Shown piece after piece: positions 292 to 29,700 of a stretch of DNA of 35,850 nt (position 1 is the first letter of the stretch; each line of letters opens with the position of its first letter). Origin of the DNA: Candidatus Pelagibacterales bacterium (GTDB taxonomy: Bacteria > Pseudomonadota > Alphaproteobacteria > Rickettsiales > UBA1997); contig VHBV01000001.1 in the NCBI GenBank assembly GCA_016882165.1, forward strand, positions 1 through 35,850. The letters are read 5' to 3'. The notes under the pieces are model-generated. The model was given only the letters and a program-made list of their open reading frames with translations. It ran no database searches and was not told where the DNA came from. The position numbers and the translations under genes are program-made.

Positions 292-1269
292 ATGGAAAAA
301 TTTGAATTCATCGTTTGCGAAACAGAAGAGAATATAAGACTTGATAAATTTCTTACGTTAAAGTTTTTGGCGATAAAACCAGAAATCACGCGCAGCAAAA
401 TTCAAAATCTTATTGATGAAAAATTAATCTGTGATGAAAATAATCAAGCAATTAAAAATTCTGCCCAAAAAACAAAATTAAATCAAAAAATTACAGTTTT
501 GGTTCCCGATGCAAAACCAATGAACTTGTCAGCTAAGAAAATTGATTTTGAAATTGTCTTTGAAGACGAAGATCTTCTGGTAATTAATAAACCCGCAGGA
601 CTCACTGTTCATCCAGGTGCTGGCAATTCTGATGATACTTTAGTTAACGCTCTTTTATTTACACATCAAAACAAACTTTCTTCTATTAATGGCGAATTTC
701 GTCCAGGAATTGTTCACCGACTTGATAAAGATACTTCCGGACTTATGTTGGTTGCCAAAAATGACTTTACTCATCAAATTTTAAGTCAAAGATTAAAAGA
801 TCGAGAAATTAAAAGAAGTTATTTGGCTTTTATTTACGGCGTTATAACTCCAAATGTTGGAATAATTGATAAAAATATTGTCCGTTCACGCTTAAATCGC
901 TTGAAGATGGTTGTTGCAAAAACTTTAGGTCGAAATGCAGTAACTAATTATGAAACAAAAAAGATTTTTGCCGATGGTTTTGCAAGCCTTGTTGAATGCA
1001 GATTGCAAACAGGAAGAACACATCAAATAAGAGTCCATTTTGAAGCAGTAAAACACTCTCTTATAGGAGATCAACTATATAACTCAGCCAAAAAAAATCC
1101 AAAAAAAGAACTTGATGAAAAATTAAAAGAGTTTGTAAAAACTTTTCCAAGACAAGCTCTTCACTCTTATAAAATAGGCTTTCTTCACCCAAGAAGTAAT
1201 AAAGAAATGAATTTTGAAATTGGGTTACCTAATGATTTAAAAGAATTGGAAAAAGTTTTGAGCATGTAA
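292..1269 (+). CDS. rluD: RluA-family 23S rRNA pseudouridine synthase (RluD-like, with an N-terminal S4-like domain)
   Basis: The 325-aa ORF has the catalytic HRLDKDTSGL motif, then GRTHQIRVH, and an N-terminal RLDKFL S4-type segment. Confidence 0.85.
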   Translation: MEKFEFIVCETEENIRLDKFLTLKFLAIKPEITRSKIQNLIDEKLICDENNQAIKNSAQKTKLNQKITVLVPDAKPMNLSAKKIDFEIVFEDEDLLVINKPAGLTVHPGAGNSDDTLVNALLFTHQNKLSSINGEFRPGIVHRLDKDTSGLMLVAKNDFTHQILSQRLKDREIKRSYLAFIYGVITPNVGIIDKNIVRSRLNRLKMVVAKTLGRNAVTNYETKKIFADGFASLVECRLQTGRTHQIRVHFEAVKHSLIGDQLYNSAKKNPKKELDEKLKEFVKTFPRQALHSYKIGFLHPRSNKEMNFEIGLPNDLKELEKVLSM

Positions 1270-4236: not shown

Positions 4237-5298
4237 ATGAAACACTTTTTCCTAAAACTAACAATTACATTTTTTGTTCTGCTTTGCTTTTCTTGCAGTC
4301 AAAAGCCTGCACAAATCGTAAATCGCAGCGGTAATTTTTATGGAAAAAACAACTTCTTCAATAAAAGCAAATATAGTAACCCTAAATTTTCCGCAGATAA
4401 CAGCTTTAAAATTAACCAAGTTGAAATTTCAGAAGGTGACACTCTTTATGCCATTTCAAAAAGATATCAAATTCCACTTCGAGACCTAATACAAGAAAAT
4501 AATTTAAAACCACCCTACATACTTAAGAATGGAAGAACTCTTATTATTCCCGCTCCTTCTTATCATATTGTGCAAAAAGGCGATACAATCTATAACATAT
4601 CGCGTTCTTACAATATGAATATTGATAATCTTGTTGAATTAAACGATTTAAAATCTCCTTATACTTTGCATGAAGGACAAAAAATTCGCACCACTAAATC
4701 ATCAAAAAGCACTGAAATTACCACTAATAACTTAAATTCTGATATTGTAGAAAAACCACTAAATCCACTTGAATCTGGCACTAATTCTATAGCTCCTGTT
4801 ACAACTTCGGTTGCGGCTGTAACTCCTCCAGTTGCAAACGCAATTCCAAACGTTGCCGAACAAAATAAAGAAGTTGCACCAAAGAAAATTGCAATTCCAA
4901 ATATCTCAGAAGCAAACCTAAGTAAATCTAATCAATTTGCTTGGCCAGTTAAAGGAGAAGTTATTTCAAAATTTGGTCCTAAAAAAGGCGGACTATATAA
5001 TGATGGTATAAATATAAAAGCTGCAAATGGTTCAAAAGTAGTTGCATCAGAAGATGGAATTGTTGCCTATGTTGGTAATGAACTAAAGGGATATGGAAAT
5101 TTAATCATCATAAAACACTCTAGTGGTTGGATTACAGCTTATGCACATCTTTCTAAAACTATCGCCAAAAGAGGACAGAAAGTTAAAAAACTTGATCTAA
5201 TTGGTGAAGTGGGAGCAACTGGTAATGTTGAGTTTCCACAACTTTACTTTGGTTTAAGAAAGGGTCGCGACTCAGTTAACCCTGAAAATTACTTATAA
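4237..5298 (+). CDS. LysM-domain / M23 metallopeptidase lipoprotein (NlpD-like)
   Basis: It has a signal peptide with Cys, two LysM repeats (GDTLYAISKRY..., GDTIYNISRSY...), a low-complexity linker, and a C-terminal M23 domain (GINIKA..., GNLIIIKH, AYAHL, GATGNV). Confidence 0.85.
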   Translation: MKHFFLKLTITFFVLLCFSCSQKPAQIVNRSGNFYGKNNFFNKSKYSNPKFSADNSFKINQVEISEGDTLYAISKRYQIPLRDLIQENNLKPPYILKNGRTLIIPAPSYHIVQKGDTIYNISRSYNMNIDNLVELNDLKSPYTLHEGQKIRTTKSSKSTEITTNNLNSDIVEKPLNPLESGTNSIAPVTTSVAAVTPPVANAIPNVAEQNKEVAPKKIAIPNISEANLSKSNQFAWPVKGEVISKFGPKKGGLYNDGINIKAANGSKVVASEDGIVAYVGNELKGYGNLIIIKHSSGWITAYAHLSKTIAKRGQKVKKLDLIGEVGATGNVEFPQLYFGLRKGRDSVNPENYL

Positions 5299-6246: not shown

Positions 6247-7809
6247 TTACAAAAAATCTTTAATCGCTTCACAAGCTTTAACCAAAGCCTGAGACTTGTT
6301 AATACATTCCTGATATTCTGATTTAGCATCAGAATCAAAAACAACTCCAGCACCAGCCTGCAGATAAATTTTACCATCTTTTATTAATGAAGAACGCAAA
6401 GTTATACAAGTTTCCATATCACCATTTGCTGAAAAATATCCAACACAACCCGCATAAAAACCTCTTCTGGTTTTCTCGATTTCTTCAATAATTTCCATAG
6501 CTCTGATTTTTGGCGCACCACTTACTGTACCAGCTGGAAATCCAGATATTAAAGCATCTAGAGCATCTAAATCTTCGCGCAAAATACCTTCAACATTTGA
6601 AGAAATATGCATTACGTGAGAATAGTTTTCTATCACCATTTTCTCAGTAACCTTTACCGAACCATCAACACAAACTCTTCCAACATCATGTCTTCCTAAA
6701 TCAATTAGCATAAGATGTTCTGCAACTTCTTTTTCATCAGATAACAATCCTTCAGCAATTTTTTTATCTTCCTCTATAGTTTTACCTCTTTTTCTTGTTC
6801 CAGCTAAAGGACGAATTGTAATTTTCTTAGATTTTGCAGAAACCATAATTTCAGGACTTGAGCCAATCAAGGTAAAATCTGGTAATTTCAGGTAAAATAA
6901 AAATGGCGAAGGATTGATTGCTCTAAGCGCGCGATAAAAAGAAAATTCAGAAATTTTAGAATCAAAGTTTGAAACAAATCTCTGCGAAGGCAATACTTGA
7001 AAAATATCACCATCCACTATGTATTTTTTTGCTTTTTCAACCGCCAAAACATATTCCGATTCAGTATAATTTGAACTAAAATCGAATTTTGGATCAAAAC
7101 TTGCTGCTGTTTTTTCATAACTTTCAGATAAAATTTCTTCAATTAACTTGATTCTATCTATAGCTAAATCAAAAATCTCAGCACTATTTTTATTAATATG
7201 AGAGGAAAAAATTGGCGCACAAATTAAAGCGCAATCAAACAGATTATCAAAAATTATCAAGATTTGTGGACGCATAAAAATACTATCCGGAATCTTTAAA
7301 TCATCTGGCAAATTATTATCTTTTATTTTTTCCATCAGACGCACCATATCGTAAGACATATAGCCAAAAATTCCACCACAAATTCCTGGCAGCTCTCCGT
7401 TTGCATAGCTCAAAGAACTCCATTCAATTTGCGACTTATTGATCAACTGTCTTAAATTCTGAATTGGATTACCCTGTTCTTTAACAAAGCTATTTTTATC
7501 ATTTGCAAAATTATCATTTAAAAACGACTCTTCCGAGGAGCATTTCCAAACTAAGTCTGGCATTAATCCAATAACAGAAAAACGTCCTTTGTTATTTCCC
7601 TTTTCAGCTGATTCAAAAAGAAAATTATAATCAGGATATTTTTTTGAGATTTTCAGCGAAGCTAAAACAGGAGTAATGGTGTCGGTTGGGATTTTCTTGT
7701 AAAGAACAGCAGAATTTGATTTTGACAAAAGGTCGCAAAATTCTGCTTTAGTGAAGTTGTACATTTGATATTTTTTAGAAAAATCACCCGTCATTTGGGC
7801 AAATCCCAA
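6247..7809 (-). CDS. trpE: Chorismate-utilising enzyme, anthranilate synthase component I (TrpE) or aminodeoxychorismate synthase PabB
   Basis: The 520-aa protein has the Chorismate_bind signature (GAPKIRAMEIIEEIE, RGFYAGCVGY, AGAGVVFDSD) and an N-terminal DTITPV segment as in TrpE. No trpG/D/C genes are nearby, so TrpE cannot be separated from PabB by eye. Confidence 0.75.
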   Translation of the reverse strand: MGFAQMTGDFSKKYQMYNFTKAEFCDLLSKSNSAVLYKKIPTDTITPVLASLKISKKYPDYNFLFESAEKGNNKGRFSVIGLMPDLVWKCSSEESFLNDNFANDKNSFVKEQGNPIQNLRQLINKSQIEWSSLSYANGELPGICGGIFGYMSYDMVRLMEKIKDNNLPDDLKIPDSIFMRPQILIIFDNLFDCALICAPIFSSHINKNSAEIFDLAIDRIKLIEEILSESYEKTAASFDPKFDFSSNYTESEYVLAVEKAKKYIVDGDIFQVLPSQRFVSNFDSKISEFSFYRALRAINPSPFLFYLKLPDFTLIGSSPEIMVSAKSKKITIRPLAGTRKRGKTIEEDKKIAEGLLSDEKEVAEHLMLIDLGRHDVGRVCVDGSVKVTEKMVIENYSHVMHISSNVEGILREDLDALDALISGFPAGTVSGAPKIRAMEIIEEIEKTRRGFYAGCVGYFSANGDMETCITLRSSLIKDGKIYLQAGAGVVFDSDAKSEYQECINKSQALVKACEAIKDFL

Positions 7810-10253: not shown

Positions 10254-11015
10254 TCAATAAGGAAATTTAATTACAATTGTTGTGCCCTTATTAATTTCTG
10301 AAGTCACTTCAATTGCTCCTTTTTGCAGTTCAACAAGATGTTTTACTATTGGCAATCCAAAACCAAAAGAATCAACTTTACCAGAATTAGGGTTTTCAAT
10401 AGTTCCATATTTTTCAAAAGCAGTTTTAACTTGATCTGGCGTCATGCCAAAACCTTGATCGCAAATTTTTATTTCAAGAAATTTTTCACAAACCACCAAC
10501 ACAACTCTAACCTCACTATTGACCGGACTATATTTCACCGCATTTGAAATAAGATTGGTTAAAATTTGTTTAGTTCTTTTAGCATCAAGTTTTATTGGTG
10601 GAATATCTGAATCAATAATCATCTTAAAATTTACATGACGCAGCAAAGCGTAATCATGATTTAATCTAAGTGACCTTTTAATCAGATCAATAATATCAAC
10701 TTCTTTAGTTAAATTTACTGAAAAATTTCCTGAAGCAGCAGCCTTAACATCAAGCAAATCATGCACCAGTTCATTCATTTCTTGCGCTGCGTGATTTATT
10801 TCTTTCACATAATCAATCAATGCTTTGATATCAATAATTGAGGCATGATTATCAAAAACTTTTACCAATTCTTCTTGCAACGCATCAGAAAAACCAATTA
10901 TGGCATTTAGTGGAGTTTTTAACTCATGCGTAATTGCTGAAATATATTCAAAAGAAGAGAATGCTTCTGGCTTTTTTGAAAATTCTACAACTTCGTTTTT
11001 TGCATTTTGTTCCAT
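10254..11015 (-). CDS. Sensor-less histidine kinase (HisKA + HATPase_c only)
   Basis: It has the H-box ITHELKTPLNAIIGFS, the N-box LTNLISNAVKYS, DQGFGM, and the G2 box GFGLPIVK. There is no TM or sensor domain and no adjacent response regulator. Confidence 0.85.
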   Translation of the reverse strand: MEQNAKNEVVEFSKKPEAFSSFEYISAITHELKTPLNAIIGFSDALQEELVKVFDNHASIIDIKALIDYVKEINHAAQEMNELVHDLLDVKAAASGNFSVNLTKEVDIIDLIKRSLRLNHDYALLRHVNFKMIIDSDIPPIKLDAKRTKQILTNLISNAVKYSPVNSEVRVVLVVCEKFLEIKICDQGFGMTPDQVKTAFEKYGTIENPNSGKVDSFGFGLPIVKHLVELQKGAIEVTSEINKGTTIVIKFPY

Positions 11016-22206: not shown

Positions 22207-22743
22207 CTACAAAATCGATTTCTGCAAAATATATTTTAAATCTGACAAATTTTTCTTAACATTTCTGAGCAAAATTTCAGCCTCTGCCATATCTTTTCTT
22301 AATAATTTGGAATCAGAATTCTGTTCAATAAAATCATCAATTTGATAGTTTTTAGAATTATCATCTTCTTGAATTGAATCATGAAGAAGCAATTTTTTTT
22401 CCTCTTCAGAAAATTCAGAATGCAAAATAATATCTAAATCTTCTTCCTTATAATTATCTTGCTTTCTCTTTTTTAGTAACTTTTGCAATCCAGCAATTGT
22501 ATAGCCTTCTTCATATAAAAACTTTTTTATTCTTTTTAAAGTTTTCAGCTGTTTATTGTAATAATATCTTCTTTTTCCATTGCCAATTTCAGGCTGAATT
22601 TGTGGAAATTTTTCTTCCCAAAATCTGATAATGTGGGTTGCAACTTTCAATTCTTTGGCAACTTCACCAATTGATCTTTTACGGTCAATACCAAGATCAT
22701 CCGCTAATTTTTCTATTTCTTTTGCAATATCGTGATGGCTCAT
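22207..22743 (-). CDS. MerR-family transcriptional regulator
   Basis: The HTH reads IGEVAKELKVATHIIRFWEEKFPQIQP...GKRRYY, followed by an acidic/helical tail. Confidence 0.85.
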   Translation of the reverse strand: MSHHDIAKEIEKLADDLGIDRKRSIGEVAKELKVATHIIRFWEEKFPQIQPEIGNGKRRYYYNKQLKTLKRIKKFLYEEGYTIAGLQKLLKKRKQDNYKEEDLDIILHSEFSEEEKKLLLHDSIQEDDNSKNYQIDDFIEQNSDSKLLRKDMAEAEILLRNVKKNLSDLKYILQKSIL

Positions 22744-23809: not shown

Positions 23810-24892
23810 TTATTTTGCTATTAATGAGTAAAAACTATCATTCTTTTTTTCTAAGAAGAGATTTAATTTTGAGAAAGCCTCAATAATTCCTTCTTTTTTG
23901 TTAATATAGTTAACTGAAATAGTTACGTAATCTTTTGAAATTGACTCAATATCTAATTGATTGACCAAGTTACTTCTTTCAATTTTATCTTTTATCATCA
24001 ACCAATTACCCAAGCCAGAAATTGGAATTTCAATCTTTACTATATTTTTCTCAGATTGAGATTCTTTAGTTTTGCTGTTAATCAAATACTCAATTACTTT
24101 TTCACAAACTTTATTTGCCAAGTCATCATAACTCAAACGATCCACATTAACAAAAGAAAGTTTAAACTTCTTTTTTTGCAACTTGGTAATATCTTGAATT
24201 AAAATTGTAACTTTATTATCAATTTTATCGTAAGAAAAAAACATCACAATTGCTTCAGAAGACTTATATTTAGACAACATCATCTCTAAATCATTAAAAC
24301 TAACATTTTCAATATTATCCTGATTTAAGATCGCAATATTAGAAATATCACCTTCTGGAATTATAAATTGTGATATTCGACGTTTCTTCACAAAAGAATT
24401 AATTACTTCCATCCACTCATTTTCTTGGCCCCATAAAGTAAATTTTGATAAGTTATTTTCAAATCCGTTAGAAGACCAAACTTTGACTGGAATCAACAAG
24501 TAATTCTCGCTCAACTCAAATTCAGCTTTTTTTACATTCTGATTTTGCAAAACTTTTTCAACAATGCTTTTTGAAAATAATATATTAAAATTTGCCACAT
24601 ATTCATTGGGCGAAATTTTTTCATCGCTAATCTGCTCAGAAAGAACTGTATCAAAAATATCTTCATCAGTAACTTTATAAATTAAAGCCGCATCCAAAGA
24701 AAGTTTAGCAAGCAACTCACTAAACGCTGTTCTTCTAGCATTTTTTGTCGCTAAAGTTTTTGCTTCTCCAGAAGAAGTTGCACTTGCTCTGCCCTCAATA
24801 TTTTCAATCAAGTAAATATTATTAACTTGAGCAAAACCGTTTTGAGAAATTATTGAAAATATAAAAATCGAAATAAAAAATAGCTTTTTCAT
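23810..24892 (-). CDS. Secreted hypothetical protein (possibly DUF2066-like)
   Basis: It has the signal peptide MKKLFFISIFIFSIISQNGFA. Its position between an AI-2E permease and a divergent purM matches a neighbourhood I recall for DUF2066 proteins, but the family assignment is not verified. Confidence 0.4.
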   Translation of the reverse strand: MKKLFFISIFIFSIISQNGFAQVNNIYLIENIEGRASATSSGEAKTLATKNARRTAFSELLAKLSLDAALIYKVTDEDIFDTVLSEQISDEKISPNEYVANFNILFSKSIVEKVLQNQNVKKAEFELSENYLLIPVKVWSSNGFENNLSKFTLWGQENEWMEVINSFVKKRRISQFIIPEGDISNIAILNQDNIENVSFNDLEMMLSKYKSSEAIVMFFSYDKIDNKVTILIQDITKLQKKKFKLSFVNVDRLSYDDLANKVCEKVIEYLINSKTKESQSEKNIVKIEIPISGLGNWLMIKDKIERSNLVNQLDIESISKDYVTISVNYINKKEGIIEAFSKLNLFLEKKNDSFYSLIAK

Positions 24893-26005: not shown

Positions 26006-26824
26006 ATGATAAATCGTAAAATTTCAGTTCATTTACAAGATTTTCCTGATGTTTCTTTTATAGAAGAAGAGAAAAAGCTAGTGTCGGAAATGGATTTAGT
26101 AAGAGAAGTCTGTAGTACCGCACTTTCAATTCGCGACAATAAAAACTTACGAGTTCGTCTTCCTCTAAAATCACTAAAAGTTATCGGCAAAAATTCTTCT
26201 AAAATTAACGACTTTAAAGAAATTATTGCTGAAGAAGTTAATGTGAAGAATATCGAAATTGCAGAAGAAATTGAAGATTTAGCTGAACTAAAATTACAAA
26301 TTAATTTCAAGAAAATTGGCGTAAAATACGGTTCAAAAGTTAAAGAAATTACTAATGCTGTAAAAATTGGTGATTGGAAAAAAATCAATGATAAAGAAAT
26401 TTCAATTGCTGGTGTCTCATTGATTGATGATGAATTTGAAATTAAACTCACTCCTAAAAATCAAGATGACAAAAAGTTTGTGATTGCATCTCTTCCAAGT
26501 AACGATTGTCTTATTCAAATTGACATTGAAGTAACGAAAGATTTGGAAGAAGAAGGAATAGCAAGAGATATTGTGCGTGCAATTCAACAAAGCAGAAAAG
26601 AGTCTAATTTGAATCTTTCTGACAATATTGCTCTAAAAATTGTATCAACCAATTCAGAAATAACAAAAGTTGCTCTGAAATTTTCTGAATATATCAAAGA
26701 GCAAACTTTATCAACTTCTATAGAAACTTATGATAACAAAGAATTAGCACAAAAATCGGCTAAATTTTTCTTTGAGAACAAAATTGATGATGGCGATTTA
26801 TCAATTGGAATTTCGGTTATTTAA
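26006..26824 (+). CDS. Stand-alone C-terminal fragment of type-2 isoleucyl-tRNA synthetase (truncated gene, split gene or pseudogene remnant)
   Basis: The 272-aa ORF starts at the SVHLQDFP segment and contains RVRLPLKSL, EEVNVKNIE and EEGIARDIVRAIQQSRKESNL, which are hallmarks of the last ~270 residues of eukaryote-like IleRS. No catalytic HIGH/KMSKS part is present in the window. Confidence 0.65.
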   Translation: MINRKISVHLQDFPDVSFIEEEKKLVSEMDLVREVCSTALSIRDNKNLRVRLPLKSLKVIGKNSSKINDFKEIIAEEVNVKNIEIAEEIEDLAELKLQINFKKIGVKYGSKVKEITNAVKIGDWKKINDKEISIAGVSLIDDEFEIKLTPKNQDDKKFVIASLPSNDCLIQIDIEVTKDLEEEGIARDIVRAIQQSRKESNLNLSDNIALKIVSTNSEITKVALKFSEYIKEQTLSTSIETYDNKELAQKSAKFFFENKIDDGDLSIGISVI

Positions 26825-27493: not shown

Positions 27494-27964
27494 TTATCTG
27501 GAAATAGATTCTACTTCTTGTTTTGATTTCTGCTGATAAGACCTAATTTTAATAACATTGAATGGCTCAAGTTTTGGGTTAGGAGTTGTCTCATAGCTTA
27601 TTCTTTGCCTTGGCAAAGCATCAATAGTTCCATCAAAATTCACATTAACTTTTGTTGGGTTATAACTCAAATTCGCTTCTTCCAAACTTTCAATTATGTA
27701 AGGAAAAACTACTTCAGGCAATTTATCCATGCCGTTAAATACTTGTTTTACCGATTCATCATAATTTGGCACATGAGTATTATTACCAATTAATCTTAAT
27801 TCTAGTACTGCCAAATCAGGGTTAATTCTTGCCAACCTAATCATTCCAGACTTTCCAGTATTATCACGATGTACTGGAAAAGCTGAAGCATCTTGAGTGT
27901 GAATTTCCGAATCATATTGTTTGTAGTAAGAAGTTTCTTTCAGATAACCATCAAAACCTTTTTT
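27494..27964 (-). CDS. C-terminal part (-1 frame) of the GS/GCL/amidoligase-like protein
   Basis: The frame is open from 27964 down to the stop at 27494-27496. It contains VHRDNTGKSGMIRLARI and AVLELRLIGNN. The 116-aa track ORF (Met at 27844) is only its distal portion. Confidence 0.55.
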   Translation of the reverse strand, partial: KKGFDGYLKETSYYKQYDSEIHTQDASAFPVHRDNTGKSGMIRLARINPDLAVLELRLIGNNTHVPNYDESVKQVFNGMDKLPEVVFPYIIESLEEANLSYNPTKVNVNFDGTIDALPRQRISYETTPNPKLEPFNVIKIRSYQQKSKQEVESISR

Positions 27965-29700
27965 CTATCAACTCCAACTGAAACAAATTCTTGTCCACCT
28001 CTTGCAATCCACGGATTTTCCTCAATTGCTTTGGTCAAACCATTTTGAATGGCTTTTATAACTTCAACAGAATCAGCATTTATAAAAACTGTTTTTTTAC
28101 CTTCTATTTCATCAGATTGAATTCTTAAAACACTTTCACCTTGTCTTTGAACACCAAGATTTATTTGCACATCACGATCTTTCATTCTTAGTTGATGTTC
28201 AGAAGAAACTTCTCTCATATAACTTATTGAATCATTCTTTGCAGACAAATCATCAATTGAAAATGGACCTATTGCAACTTCATGGGCTCTTATCATATCC
28301 AAAGTTTGTGAGTAAAATGATGCATTATTTGCTAAACGGGGCAGTATGTTACTTAGGTTTTGTTCTAAAGTTTTATCCCATTCAAACACACCATCAAGAG
28401 CTAATTTATTGAGTTGCGCTTTATCATGCCTTAAAAATAACAAATCAAAAAAATACATCTCTTCTCTACTAAGAAGAGGAACATTTGATATCGCTTTATC
28501 AATCATTTCAGAATTACTTGCATTTTTCTGACTTAACAAAAATTCTCCTATTTTCCCTCTAATTTCGTCTTTACCATAATCATTAGCAATGTTTCCTTCT
28601 TTTTCTTGTCTTATTTCATCTTCTGAAAAAAGTAATAATACATTTGGAGTATTAGCAAGCTCTTGACTAGGAAAACCATAATTATCACGCATTTTCTTTC
28701 TTGAACTTAGATCTGCTGAACCTTTTACTAATTTCTCAAATTCTGTTTTCTGACGTTCTTCTTCTGCTTTTGGTCCACCAAAAGGAAGCAATAAAAACTC
28801 CATTTCATAACCAACTGTAGTTTCTAAGCCTTGCGAAACTAAATTATCTTTATACTGCTTTTGCCAAGAATCTGTATCTTTGTATTTTTTTACCTCACTT
28901 TCCAAAAGATCAGTATCAACTTTAACACTTTTTAAACTAGATAATCCTGTAAAAAACTGTCTTGCTTTGGTTATTAAGTCTGATGAAGAAGATGAAGTAA
29001 CGTAAGATTCTATTTCTCTTATCTGCCTTGCAGCATCAACTCCAGCACGATAAAGAGTTCCTTGGTTTATTGCAGTATGTTCTTCAATTCCATCAACTCC
29101 ATGATTTTTCTTAATTACATCAAAATTGTCAGCTAAAGCCACTTCATTGTTAAGTCTAACTAAAGAGGAAAAAAATTGTTTTTCATCTTCAATTACAGAT
29201 AATTCTTGAGATCTTTGTTCCAAAGATTTTCCTTGGCTTTCCAGAATTGTACGAACAAATTTACCGTAGTTCCAAGAGATACGACTGTGAGCATGCTGAT
29301 ATTTATGATCTGACTCTTCAATTAATTTTCTTCGAAATTCTTTTACTGCTTCTGATACACCAAACAAATCTTCTACTTGGCATCTTTTCTCTTCTAACGT
29401 TATTTGCTGTTTTGAATCAATTTCATTTATCTGATTCAAAGTTCTCATCACCTCAGCAGAAAAATCTGATGATTTAAGGCTAGTAATATCTTTGCCAAAT
29501 ATTTGTTGATAATTAAAAGCAAAAGATTGCAGTTCTTGTTTTAATGCTTCGCTAGAAGTTAGTTCAGATATCAAGCTTGCACTTTCAATAAAAGGAATGA
29601 TTAAGTTTATAGATTTTCTCTTCACTTCTGCTTCCAGAGAGTTCCATCCAGCTATTATGTCTTTTAGCTGATCCTGACGATTTTTTAAAACAGAGACCAT
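27940..29700 (-). CDS. N-terminal part (zero frame) of a large protein with a GS/GCL/amidoligase-like domain and a ~290-aa uncharacterised N-terminal region
   Basis: A strong SD (AAGGAGGATTA) lies just before the ATG at 29700. VGYEMEFLLL (ExE strand) and AHEVAIGPF resemble glutamine synthetase superfamily motifs. The assignment is at motif level only. Confidence 0.55.
   Translation of the reverse strand: MVSVLKNRQDQLKDIIAGWNSLEAEVKRKSINLIIPFIESASLISELTSSEALKQELQSFAFNYQQIFGKDITSLKSSDFSAEVMRTLNQINEIDSKQQITLEEKRCQVEDLFGVSEAVKEFRRKLIEESDHKYQHAHSRISWNYGKFVRTILESQGKSLEQRSQELSVIEDEKQFFSSLVRLNNEVALADNFDVIKKNHGVDGIEEHTAINQGTLYRAGVDAARQIREIESYVTSSSSSDLITKARQFFTGLSSLKSVKVDTDLLESEVKKYKDTDSWQKQYKDNLVSQGLETTVGYEMEFLLLPFGGPKAEEERQKTEFEKLVKGSADLSSRKKMRDNYGFPSQELANTPNVLLLFSEDEIRQEKEGNIANDYGKDEIRGKIGEFLLSQKNASNSEMIDKAISNVPLLSREEMYFFDLLFLRHDKAQLNKLALDGVFEWDKTLEQNLSNILPRLANNASFYSQTLDMIRAHEVAIGPFSIDDLSAKNDSISYMREVSSEHQLRMKDRDVQINLGVQRQGESVLRIQSDEIEGKKTVFINADSVEVIKAIQNGLTKAIEENPWIARGGQEFVSVGVDRKKVLMVI
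27958..27964 (-). promoter_or_regulatory. A_AAA_AAG heptamer in the correct phase for -1 ribosomal frameshifting
   Basis: The minus strand reads GGAG TTGATAG A AAA AAG G, and the zero-frame codons are AGA AAA AAG. The zero frame stops 5 codons later, while the -1 frame continues for 154 codons. Confidence 0.4.

Follow-up and report, generated by a model that had tools for sequence, protein, structure and literature searches.

In Escherichia coli dnaX, the heptamer A_AAA_AAG directs a −1 ribosomal frameshift with the help of an upstream Shine–Dalgarno-like element and a downstream stem–loop, and the shift yields a shorter product. The identical heptamer, in the same phase and with a zero-frame stop close by, occurs on the minus strand of a 35,850-nucleotide (nt) stretch of contig VHBV01000001.1 from a freshwater Candidatus Pelagibacterales bacterium (hereafter, the window), where it marks the point at which a gene for a protein with a predicted glutamine synthetase (GS)-like core passes from one reading frame into another. 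A break of this kind also resembles homopolymer-tract pseudogenes and contingency genes, in that a coding poly-A tract is one base shorter, with comparable contractions at other tracts within the family. A third likeness is to the corrective frameshifting and slippage systems described for G-run mutants of herpesvirus thymidine kinase and for poly(A) tracts in genes of endosymbionts, in which a one-base homopolymer indel leaves a slippery run that permits a small fraction of full-length protein (PMC5009743; PMC5574713). Comparing the window gene with its relatives, we think it reasonably probable that the break is a recent and genuine one-base deletion in an A7 tract, leaving a truncated and probably inactive product with, at most, an incidental and leaky rescue.

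The upstream part of the gene is a zero-frame open reading frame (ORF) that runs from an ATG at 29700 to a TGA at 27942–27940, with a Shine–Dalgarno sequence (AAGGAGG, 29711–29705) placed 4 nt before the start codon. Its 586-amino-acid (aa) product is identical to a database entry, P0002, a hypothetical protein from a Pelagibacterales metagenome-assembled genome (MAG; FJ368_00140), and consists of family residues 1–581, covering a helical N-terminal domain (about residues 1–290) and the first part of the GS-like core, followed by an out-of-frame tail of five codons (VLMVI). The end of this ORF reads ...GTT GAT AGA AAA AAG GTT TTG ATG GTT ATC TGA, and the zero and −1 frames meet at the codons AGA AAA AAG (27966–27958), within which A_AAA_AAG occupies 27964–27958 in the X_XXY_YYZ phase as a run of six A (27964–27959) followed by G. 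The −1 frame is open from 27964 to a TAA at 27496–27494 and is shut just 5′ of the heptamer by two stops, TGA TAG (27970–27965); any shift must therefore fall between 27964 and 27943. A GGAG (27975–27972) lies 7 nt 5′ of the heptamer. Re-reading of base 27958 in a −1 shift would give a product of 735 aa (581 + 154) with the junction ...VDRKKGFDGYLK, in which VDRKK is joined to GFDGYLK. The continuation (27958–27494) comprises 154 codons, residues 582–735, and the TAA, with no further stops or indels, and its first ATG is at 27844, dividing the gene as it stands into 586 aa and 116 aa. The frames, the coordinates, the phase of the heptamer, the GGAG, the Shine–Dalgarno sequence and the 735-aa fusion had all been described in the original prediction, which was made from the letters alone, and every one of these statements was reproduced.

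Orthologues that reach the site are contiguous and align across the junction, and for this reason the two frames are parts of one gene. The fused protein matched 32 clusters in a database search, the window's own 586-aa protein among them, and about 25 of the 32 are full-length proteins of 729–775 aa. The junction is crossed in the alignment by all 29 homologues, including three that are truncated further downstream, with D578, R579 and K580 invariant; among the family members that reach the site, the DRKK motif is invariant across the junction. In keeping with this, tblastn of the fetched loci found one frame across the site in every covering locus except the window's own duplicate. Moreover, an AlphaFold model of the fused protein forms a single confident unit (pLDDT 88.4, pTM 0.89). 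The original prediction had argued that the domain logic favoured a single product, and the contiguous orthologues, the invariant DRKK and the model bear this out.

The nearest relative, a 730-aa protein with 78% aa identity that is encoded at four loci (L001, L002, L007 and L020), reads GAT AGA AAG AAA GGT TTT GAT where the window reads GAT AGA AAA AAG GTT TTG AT, one base shorter, and most other lineages carry GAT CGN AAA AAA GGN. From these comparisons, the intact form of the site was probably AGA AAA AAA GGT, with seven A, coding for the Arg-Lys-Lys-Gly of the invariant DRKKG motif. A tract of six or seven A at this position is the ancestral condition and a mutational hot spot; as the family norm, it results from two invariant lysines and AT-rich codon usage (805 AAA against 145 AAG codons in the window). 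As expected of a homopolymer-indel allele, the orthologues are contiguous and the lesion is a change of ±1 in a mononucleotide run. The earlier proposal had left two outcomes open for the orthologues: their contiguity was confirmed, with AGA AAG AAA GGT in the nearest, and conservation of the heptamer with its two-frame layout was not.

That layout carries the outward signs of a dnaX-type programmed −1 ribosomal frameshift maintained by selection, in which A_AAA_AAG and GGAG would set a fixed ratio of 586-aa to 735-aa product: the heptamer is in phase with a zero-frame stop five codons on, the −1 frame opens exactly at the heptamer, GGAG stands 7 nt upstream, and the downstream coding sequence is intact and keeps its family-invariant residues. 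Against this, the heptamer and two-frame layout are present in none of the 29 aligned homologues, the nearest (78%) included, and no fetched locus that covers the site breaks here. The nearest orthologue has GGAA in place of GGAG, and the spacing of 7 nt is shorter than the optimum of roughly 10 nt in dnaX. The original prediction had noted no strong hairpin downstream, and there is none: the 100 nt 3′ of the site fold at −7.9 kcal/mol against a mean of −13.3 kcal/mol for shuffled sequences (z = +1.95), and for the first 50 nt z is +0.81. Nor was any Rfam match found in the window at gathering thresholds. In contrast to dnaX, the window gene has no stem–loop, has a weak and unconserved GGAG at 7 nt, and has orthologues without the heptamer and the two-frame layout. 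The products differ as well, because the dnaX frameshift makes a shorter protein whereas the window gene would need the shift for its only complete one; no useful short isoform is evident, since the 586-aa product is without core strands of the fold.

The phase of the motif and the direction of the shift are, in addition, given trivially by a deletion. Loss of one base from A_AAA_AAA_G leaves A_AAA_AAG in the original phase and shifts the remainder of the gene into the −1 frame, so motif, phase and shift direction are one event and not three coincidences. The heptamer is also common in this genome. Seven in-phase copies occur in 30.7 kb of ORFs in the window, which has 31.5% G+C, and six of the seven are in intact genes; the count is not above chance, and this AT-rich genome seems not to avoid A_AAA_AAG. 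The further copies lie at 956–962 (plus strand) in ORF 292–1269 and, on the minus strand, at 10971–10977 in ORF 10254–11015, at 22468–22474 and 22522–22528 in ORF 22207–22743, and at 23843–23849 and 24170–24176 in ORF 23810–24892. Thus, the proposal of a dnaX-type programmed frameshift is not supported, and we regard it as very improbable; a one-base loss from an A7 run, which the original prediction had kept as its fallback, explains the site better. When a Lys-Lys tract of an AT-rich genome loses one base, an in-phase A_AAA_AAG at the resulting frame break is only to be expected, and such a motif should not be taken as evidence for programmed frameshifting. As a recoding candidate the site carries little weight, and the lesion itself is ordinary.

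In the explanation that we favour, the window genome would have lost one base from the A7 tract that codes for the invariant Lys-Lys of DRKKG (AGA AAA AAA GGT), so that the final 154 codons fall into the −1 frame. Translation would then yield mainly a 586-aa protein in which the Arg-rich loop and the ExR strand are missing and which is presumably inactive; A_AAA_AAG in phase would be the automatic scar of the deletion; and a small amount of incidental −1 slippage, either ribosomal or transcriptional, would at most restore some full-length protein. We infer that the break is real at the level of the reads, that the truncated product is inactive and that any rescue is minor. Inactivity of the 586-aa product is very probable because the missing part supplies strands 621–627 and 630–637 and helix 657–675 of the AlphaFold model, and an active protein would require the frame to change at the A run. 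Residues 582–618, which include the invariant S606, F608, H611, R612, T615 and K617, lie between the zero-frame stop and the ATG at 27844, so that they could be expressed only through such a change. A split enzyme of two polypeptides (586 aa and 116 aa) was considered and rejected, as this segment with its six invariant positions would be present in neither.

Incidental rescue is conceivable, whether the ribosome slips on A_AAA_AAG or the polymerase inserts a base within the A6 run during transcription. In E. coli reporters, heptamers without stimulators raise frameshifting only 2- to 10-fold over a background of about 0.055% (PMC4066793); transcriptional insertions increase exponentially with run length (PMC5574713), and compensatory use of leakiness at homopolymer indels has been documented in other systems (PMC5009743). 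Unlike those corrective systems, in which rescue is documented, the window has a run of only six A and a rescue that is conceivable only.

The downstream part of the gene shows no further decay. There are no additional stops or indels, all family-invariant residues are kept on both sides of the break, and the ratio of non-synonymous to synonymous substitution rates (dN/dS) relative to the nearest orthologue is 0.21 downstream, against 0.23 for the N-terminal and 0.22 for the middle part. If the locus is a pseudogene, it would be a very young one. More broadly, three readings fit: a very recent lesion, continued expression of the downstream part, or an error. The last of these, in which base-calling or assembly would have dropped one A from a true A7 tract and an uninterrupted 735-aa ORF, is the main rival to a genuine deletion. 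A one-base homopolymer shortfall belongs to a classic class of error, both gene parts are otherwise flawless, and the source is a MAG of unknown coverage. However, both the A6 and the division into 586 aa and 116 aa recur in L003, a Logan assembly from run SRR7985395 that departs from the window at two of 5,548 nt, both outside this gene; because this assembly is independent, the break is not an assembler artefact. Furthermore, the window holds 53 A/T runs of at least 7 bases and no other broken gene was seen, which argues against a general tendency to homopolymer errors in the assembly; seven comparable neighbouring genes have the same or nearly the same length as in the 78% relative. Literature searches on SRR7985395 and on SRP219642 for the sequencing platform found nothing. 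On balance, we judge a sequencing or consensus error to be unlikely.

Several points nevertheless weigh against a recent, inactivating deletion. The window and Logan assemblies may share reads, in which case a systematic homopolymer miscall could have entered both. No strain closer than 78% identity was found among the JGI metagenome contigs and GTDB genomes scanned, and the intact A7 allele of the window's own species is thus unseen. The flawless state of the 154 downstream codons is equally expected of a gene that is rescued and still functional. A_AAA_AAG is the most slippery of bacterial heptamers where a lone tRNA-Lys(UUU) reads both lysine codons, and tRNA scans of the window and 14 loci detected no tRNA-Lys gene.

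Lesions elsewhere in the family tip the balance towards genuine mutation in the window. Counting the window, we found five independent recent lesions against about 25 intact clusters (at 90% identity). Two of the others are frameshifts. In L005 and L011, an A9 tract has become A8 in CAA AAA AAA AGC (QKKS, with the invariant K257 and S258), which divides the gene into ORFs of 276 and 479 aa; the two assemblies are four single-nucleotide polymorphisms (SNPs) apart over 6.3 kb, and the contig name of L011 gives a coverage of 138x. This lesion lies at 2960–2990 in L005 and at about 6786–6800 in L011, corresponding approximately to window residues 255–260. In L016, an A8 tract has become A7 in GAA AAA AAA GAA (EKKEE) at about 6465–6480; its nucleotide identity to L012, which is intact at the same position, is 96.2%. 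All three frameshift alleles leave an in-phase A_AAA_AAG because the loss of one base from a Lys-Lys tract yields it automatically.

The remaining two lesions are nonsense substitutions. In L004 and L006 (P0029 and P0030), from strains 96.4% identical to L012, TGA replaces CGA at Arg622 (4885–4887), which is nearly invariant and is the residue at which P0028 also ends. Between these two carriers, the 94 codons after the stop differ by five non-synonymous and no synonymous substitutions and the 628 codons before it by a single difference, a pattern that is consistent with relaxed constraint downstream of the stop. L022 (P0035) has the same CGA-to-TGA change at the invariant Arg579 of DRKK (2536–2538), with all downstream motifs still in frame; the motifs after the Arg622 stop have kept their frame as well. 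Recoding of UGA at these two in-frame alleles was rejected, given that both replace an invariant arginine (CGA to TGA) and that one of them is followed by the non-synonymous excess. TGA substitutions cannot be homopolymer artefacts, which means that real knock-out alleles of this gene circulate in nature. For the error reading of the window, the relatives thus point in both directions: two other breaks in the family are likewise one-base poly-A shortfalls, but the equivalent A8 lesion of L011 is on the contig with 138x coverage in its name and recurs in a second assembly, and the loss-of-function TGA alleles belong to the same family. At least five independent recent knock-out alleles hint at conditional dispensability or at selection for loss.

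The same recurrence could be read as phase variation. In a contingency locus, the poly-A tracts of Lys-Lys pairs would be reversible switches that operate by slipped-strand mispairing, and the window would have captured an 'off' or leaky phase. Consistent with this, three independent one-base contractions have struck three different poly-A tracts of the family, intact and contracted alleles occur together in one cluster of about 96% nucleotide identity, and five independent lesions in roughly 30 lineages are many for free-living bacteria. Yet the tracts are short (A7–A9) and explained by conserved KK pairs and AT-rich codon use, two of the five lesions are nonsense substitutions of an irreversible type, a TGA lineage shows downstream decay, and no surface, restriction–modification or phage-related function is evident; any reversibility in this family is putative. 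We consider phase variation improbable. Very improbable, in our estimate, is the wider proposal of a GS-like gene under recurrent, possibly reversible inactivation, with Lys-Lys poly-A tracts as switch points and 'off' alleles made leaky by −1 slippage; were it true, a free-living bacterium with a streamlined genome would possess a contingency-like dial for expression.

The original prediction had assigned the protein to a group of GS, glutamate–cysteine ligase (GCL) and amidoligase-like enzymes. In classical GS, the N-terminal beta-grasp domain (Gln-synt_N) contributes to the neighbouring active site, and the catalytic part is represented by Gln-synt_C. We compared AlphaFold models of the full-length fusion and of residues 252–724 (pLDDT 84.5, pTM 0.87) with the Protein Data Bank (PDB) by Foldseek. 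For both models, the top 50 matches were all GS-family enzymes, with probabilities of 0.97–1.00, although the similarity is weak (best E = 2.8e-4 with the full-length model and 5.8e-5 with the domain; TM 0.31–0.37, root-mean-square deviation (rmsd) about 9–10 Å). The matches, with E values from 6e-5 to 8e-3, include Methanosarcina mazei GS, GmaS and 1-naphthylamine GS. Sequence searches gave no corresponding signal. The fused protein matched no GS, GCS2 or Amidoligase_2 family in Pfam, even at E values up to 10, and nothing in NCBIfam; no GS was matched among PDB sequences by phmmer with the fused protein or by hmmsearch with the family profile; and the domain alignment showed no relationship to E. 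coli GlnA in hhalign (probability 0.35%). A PDB sequence match to YtfQ (2vk2, E = 0.031) was dismissed because it shares only a 'DRKKG' peptide. Thus, the likeness to a GS fold has partial support, but the protein cannot be placed in the GS, GCL or amidoligase families.

Within the predicted core, four motifs named in the original prediction are invariant or nearly so across the family and stand in the same order as in the GS family (GlnA, GmaS, 1-naphthylamine GS), on predicted beta-strands. We paired them with E. coli GlnA by inspection of motif order and not by alignment; their positions in the family come from its alignment, and all lie on the minus strand. The ExE motif is in VGYEMEFLLL (residues 296–305, 28815–28786; model strand 292–306), where E299 and E301 of GYEMEF are invariant and stand opposite GPEPEFF of GlnA (E130, E132). 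The HE motif is in AHEVAIGPF (residues 472–480, 28287–28261), with E474, G478 and F480 invariant and H473 not; AHEVAIG stands opposite HHEVATAG, or HHEVATAGQ (E213). The Arg-rich segment HRDNTGKSGMIRLARI (residues 611–626, 27871–27824; model strand 621–627) has H611, R612, T615 and K617 invariant and R622 nearly so, and its R...R motif, HRDNTGKSGMIRLA (R612, R622), is paired with NRSASIRIP (R340, R345). ExR is in ELRLIGNN (residues 634–641, 27802–27779; model strand 630–637), with E634 and R636 nearly invariant, opposite EVRFPD (E358, R360).

Three features set the protein apart from GS. By motif order, KDRDVQINLGV (residues 507–517, 28182–28150) stands at the place of the ATP-site signature GSGMHCH of GS; K507, D508, R509, Q512, N514 and G516 are invariant and there is no His, so the His ligands of the ATP and metal signature are replaced by an invariant Q..N, in agreement with the earlier remark that DVQINLGV is without the usual histidines. 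A helical insert of about 90 aa between ExE and HE is extra to the window protein. In place of the N-terminal beta-grasp there is an all-helical domain of about 290 aa: for residues 1–255 only helices are predicted and Pfam gives no match, in line with the description of the first 290 or so residues as helical and unrecognised. We read the protein as having a highly diverged GS-like core, perhaps that of an ATP-dependent carboxylate–amine ligase; no profile-level sequence similarity to GS is detectable, and the TM scores are low.

The family is rare and unnamed, with neither a Pfam nor an NCBIfam model. An exhaustive profile search of 1.84 billion representatives returned only 64 proteins at E ≤ 0.001, largely from freshwater MAGs labelled Pelagibacterales or 'Rickettsiales', and about 70 residues are invariant across the 30 closest sequences. 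A small, conserved family in which a GS-like core devoid of the customary His ligands is joined to a novel helical N-terminal domain is a candidate for a new ATP-dependent ligase; among the features described here, only this uncharacterised family and its repeated knock-outs deserve follow-up. The gene neighbours vary (lysC and a PEBP-family gene in the window, sucB and sucA in L004, glpX and secB in L005), and the genomic context gives no functional clue. The family is otherwise alphaproteobacterial, but a distant homologue, with 25% identity over the full length, is present in a marine actinobacterial MAG, Candidatus Actinomarina (L019, 5186–7138); it may be there through transfer from one planktonic lineage to another or through a binning error. 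One family member, P0018, has an internal tandem duplication of about 22 aa (RLAMDDLFDWRD...) in the helical insert of the GS-like domain (about columns 522–543 of alignment A1).

Two other genes of the window were noted in passing. DUF5915 is a domain found at the C-terminus of some isoleucyl-tRNA synthetases, and the adjoining gene at 26006–26824 (plus strand, 272 aa) consists of DUF5915 alone. The idea that it is a split ileS, and hence a sign of an error-prone assembly, was rejected, as this stand-alone gene has the same length in the 78% relative, where its position also matches (L001, 5842–6660). Finally, a 360-aa ORF at 23810–24892 (minus strand) has no Pfam match, and its length and position are conserved in the same relative (L001, 7776–8858).

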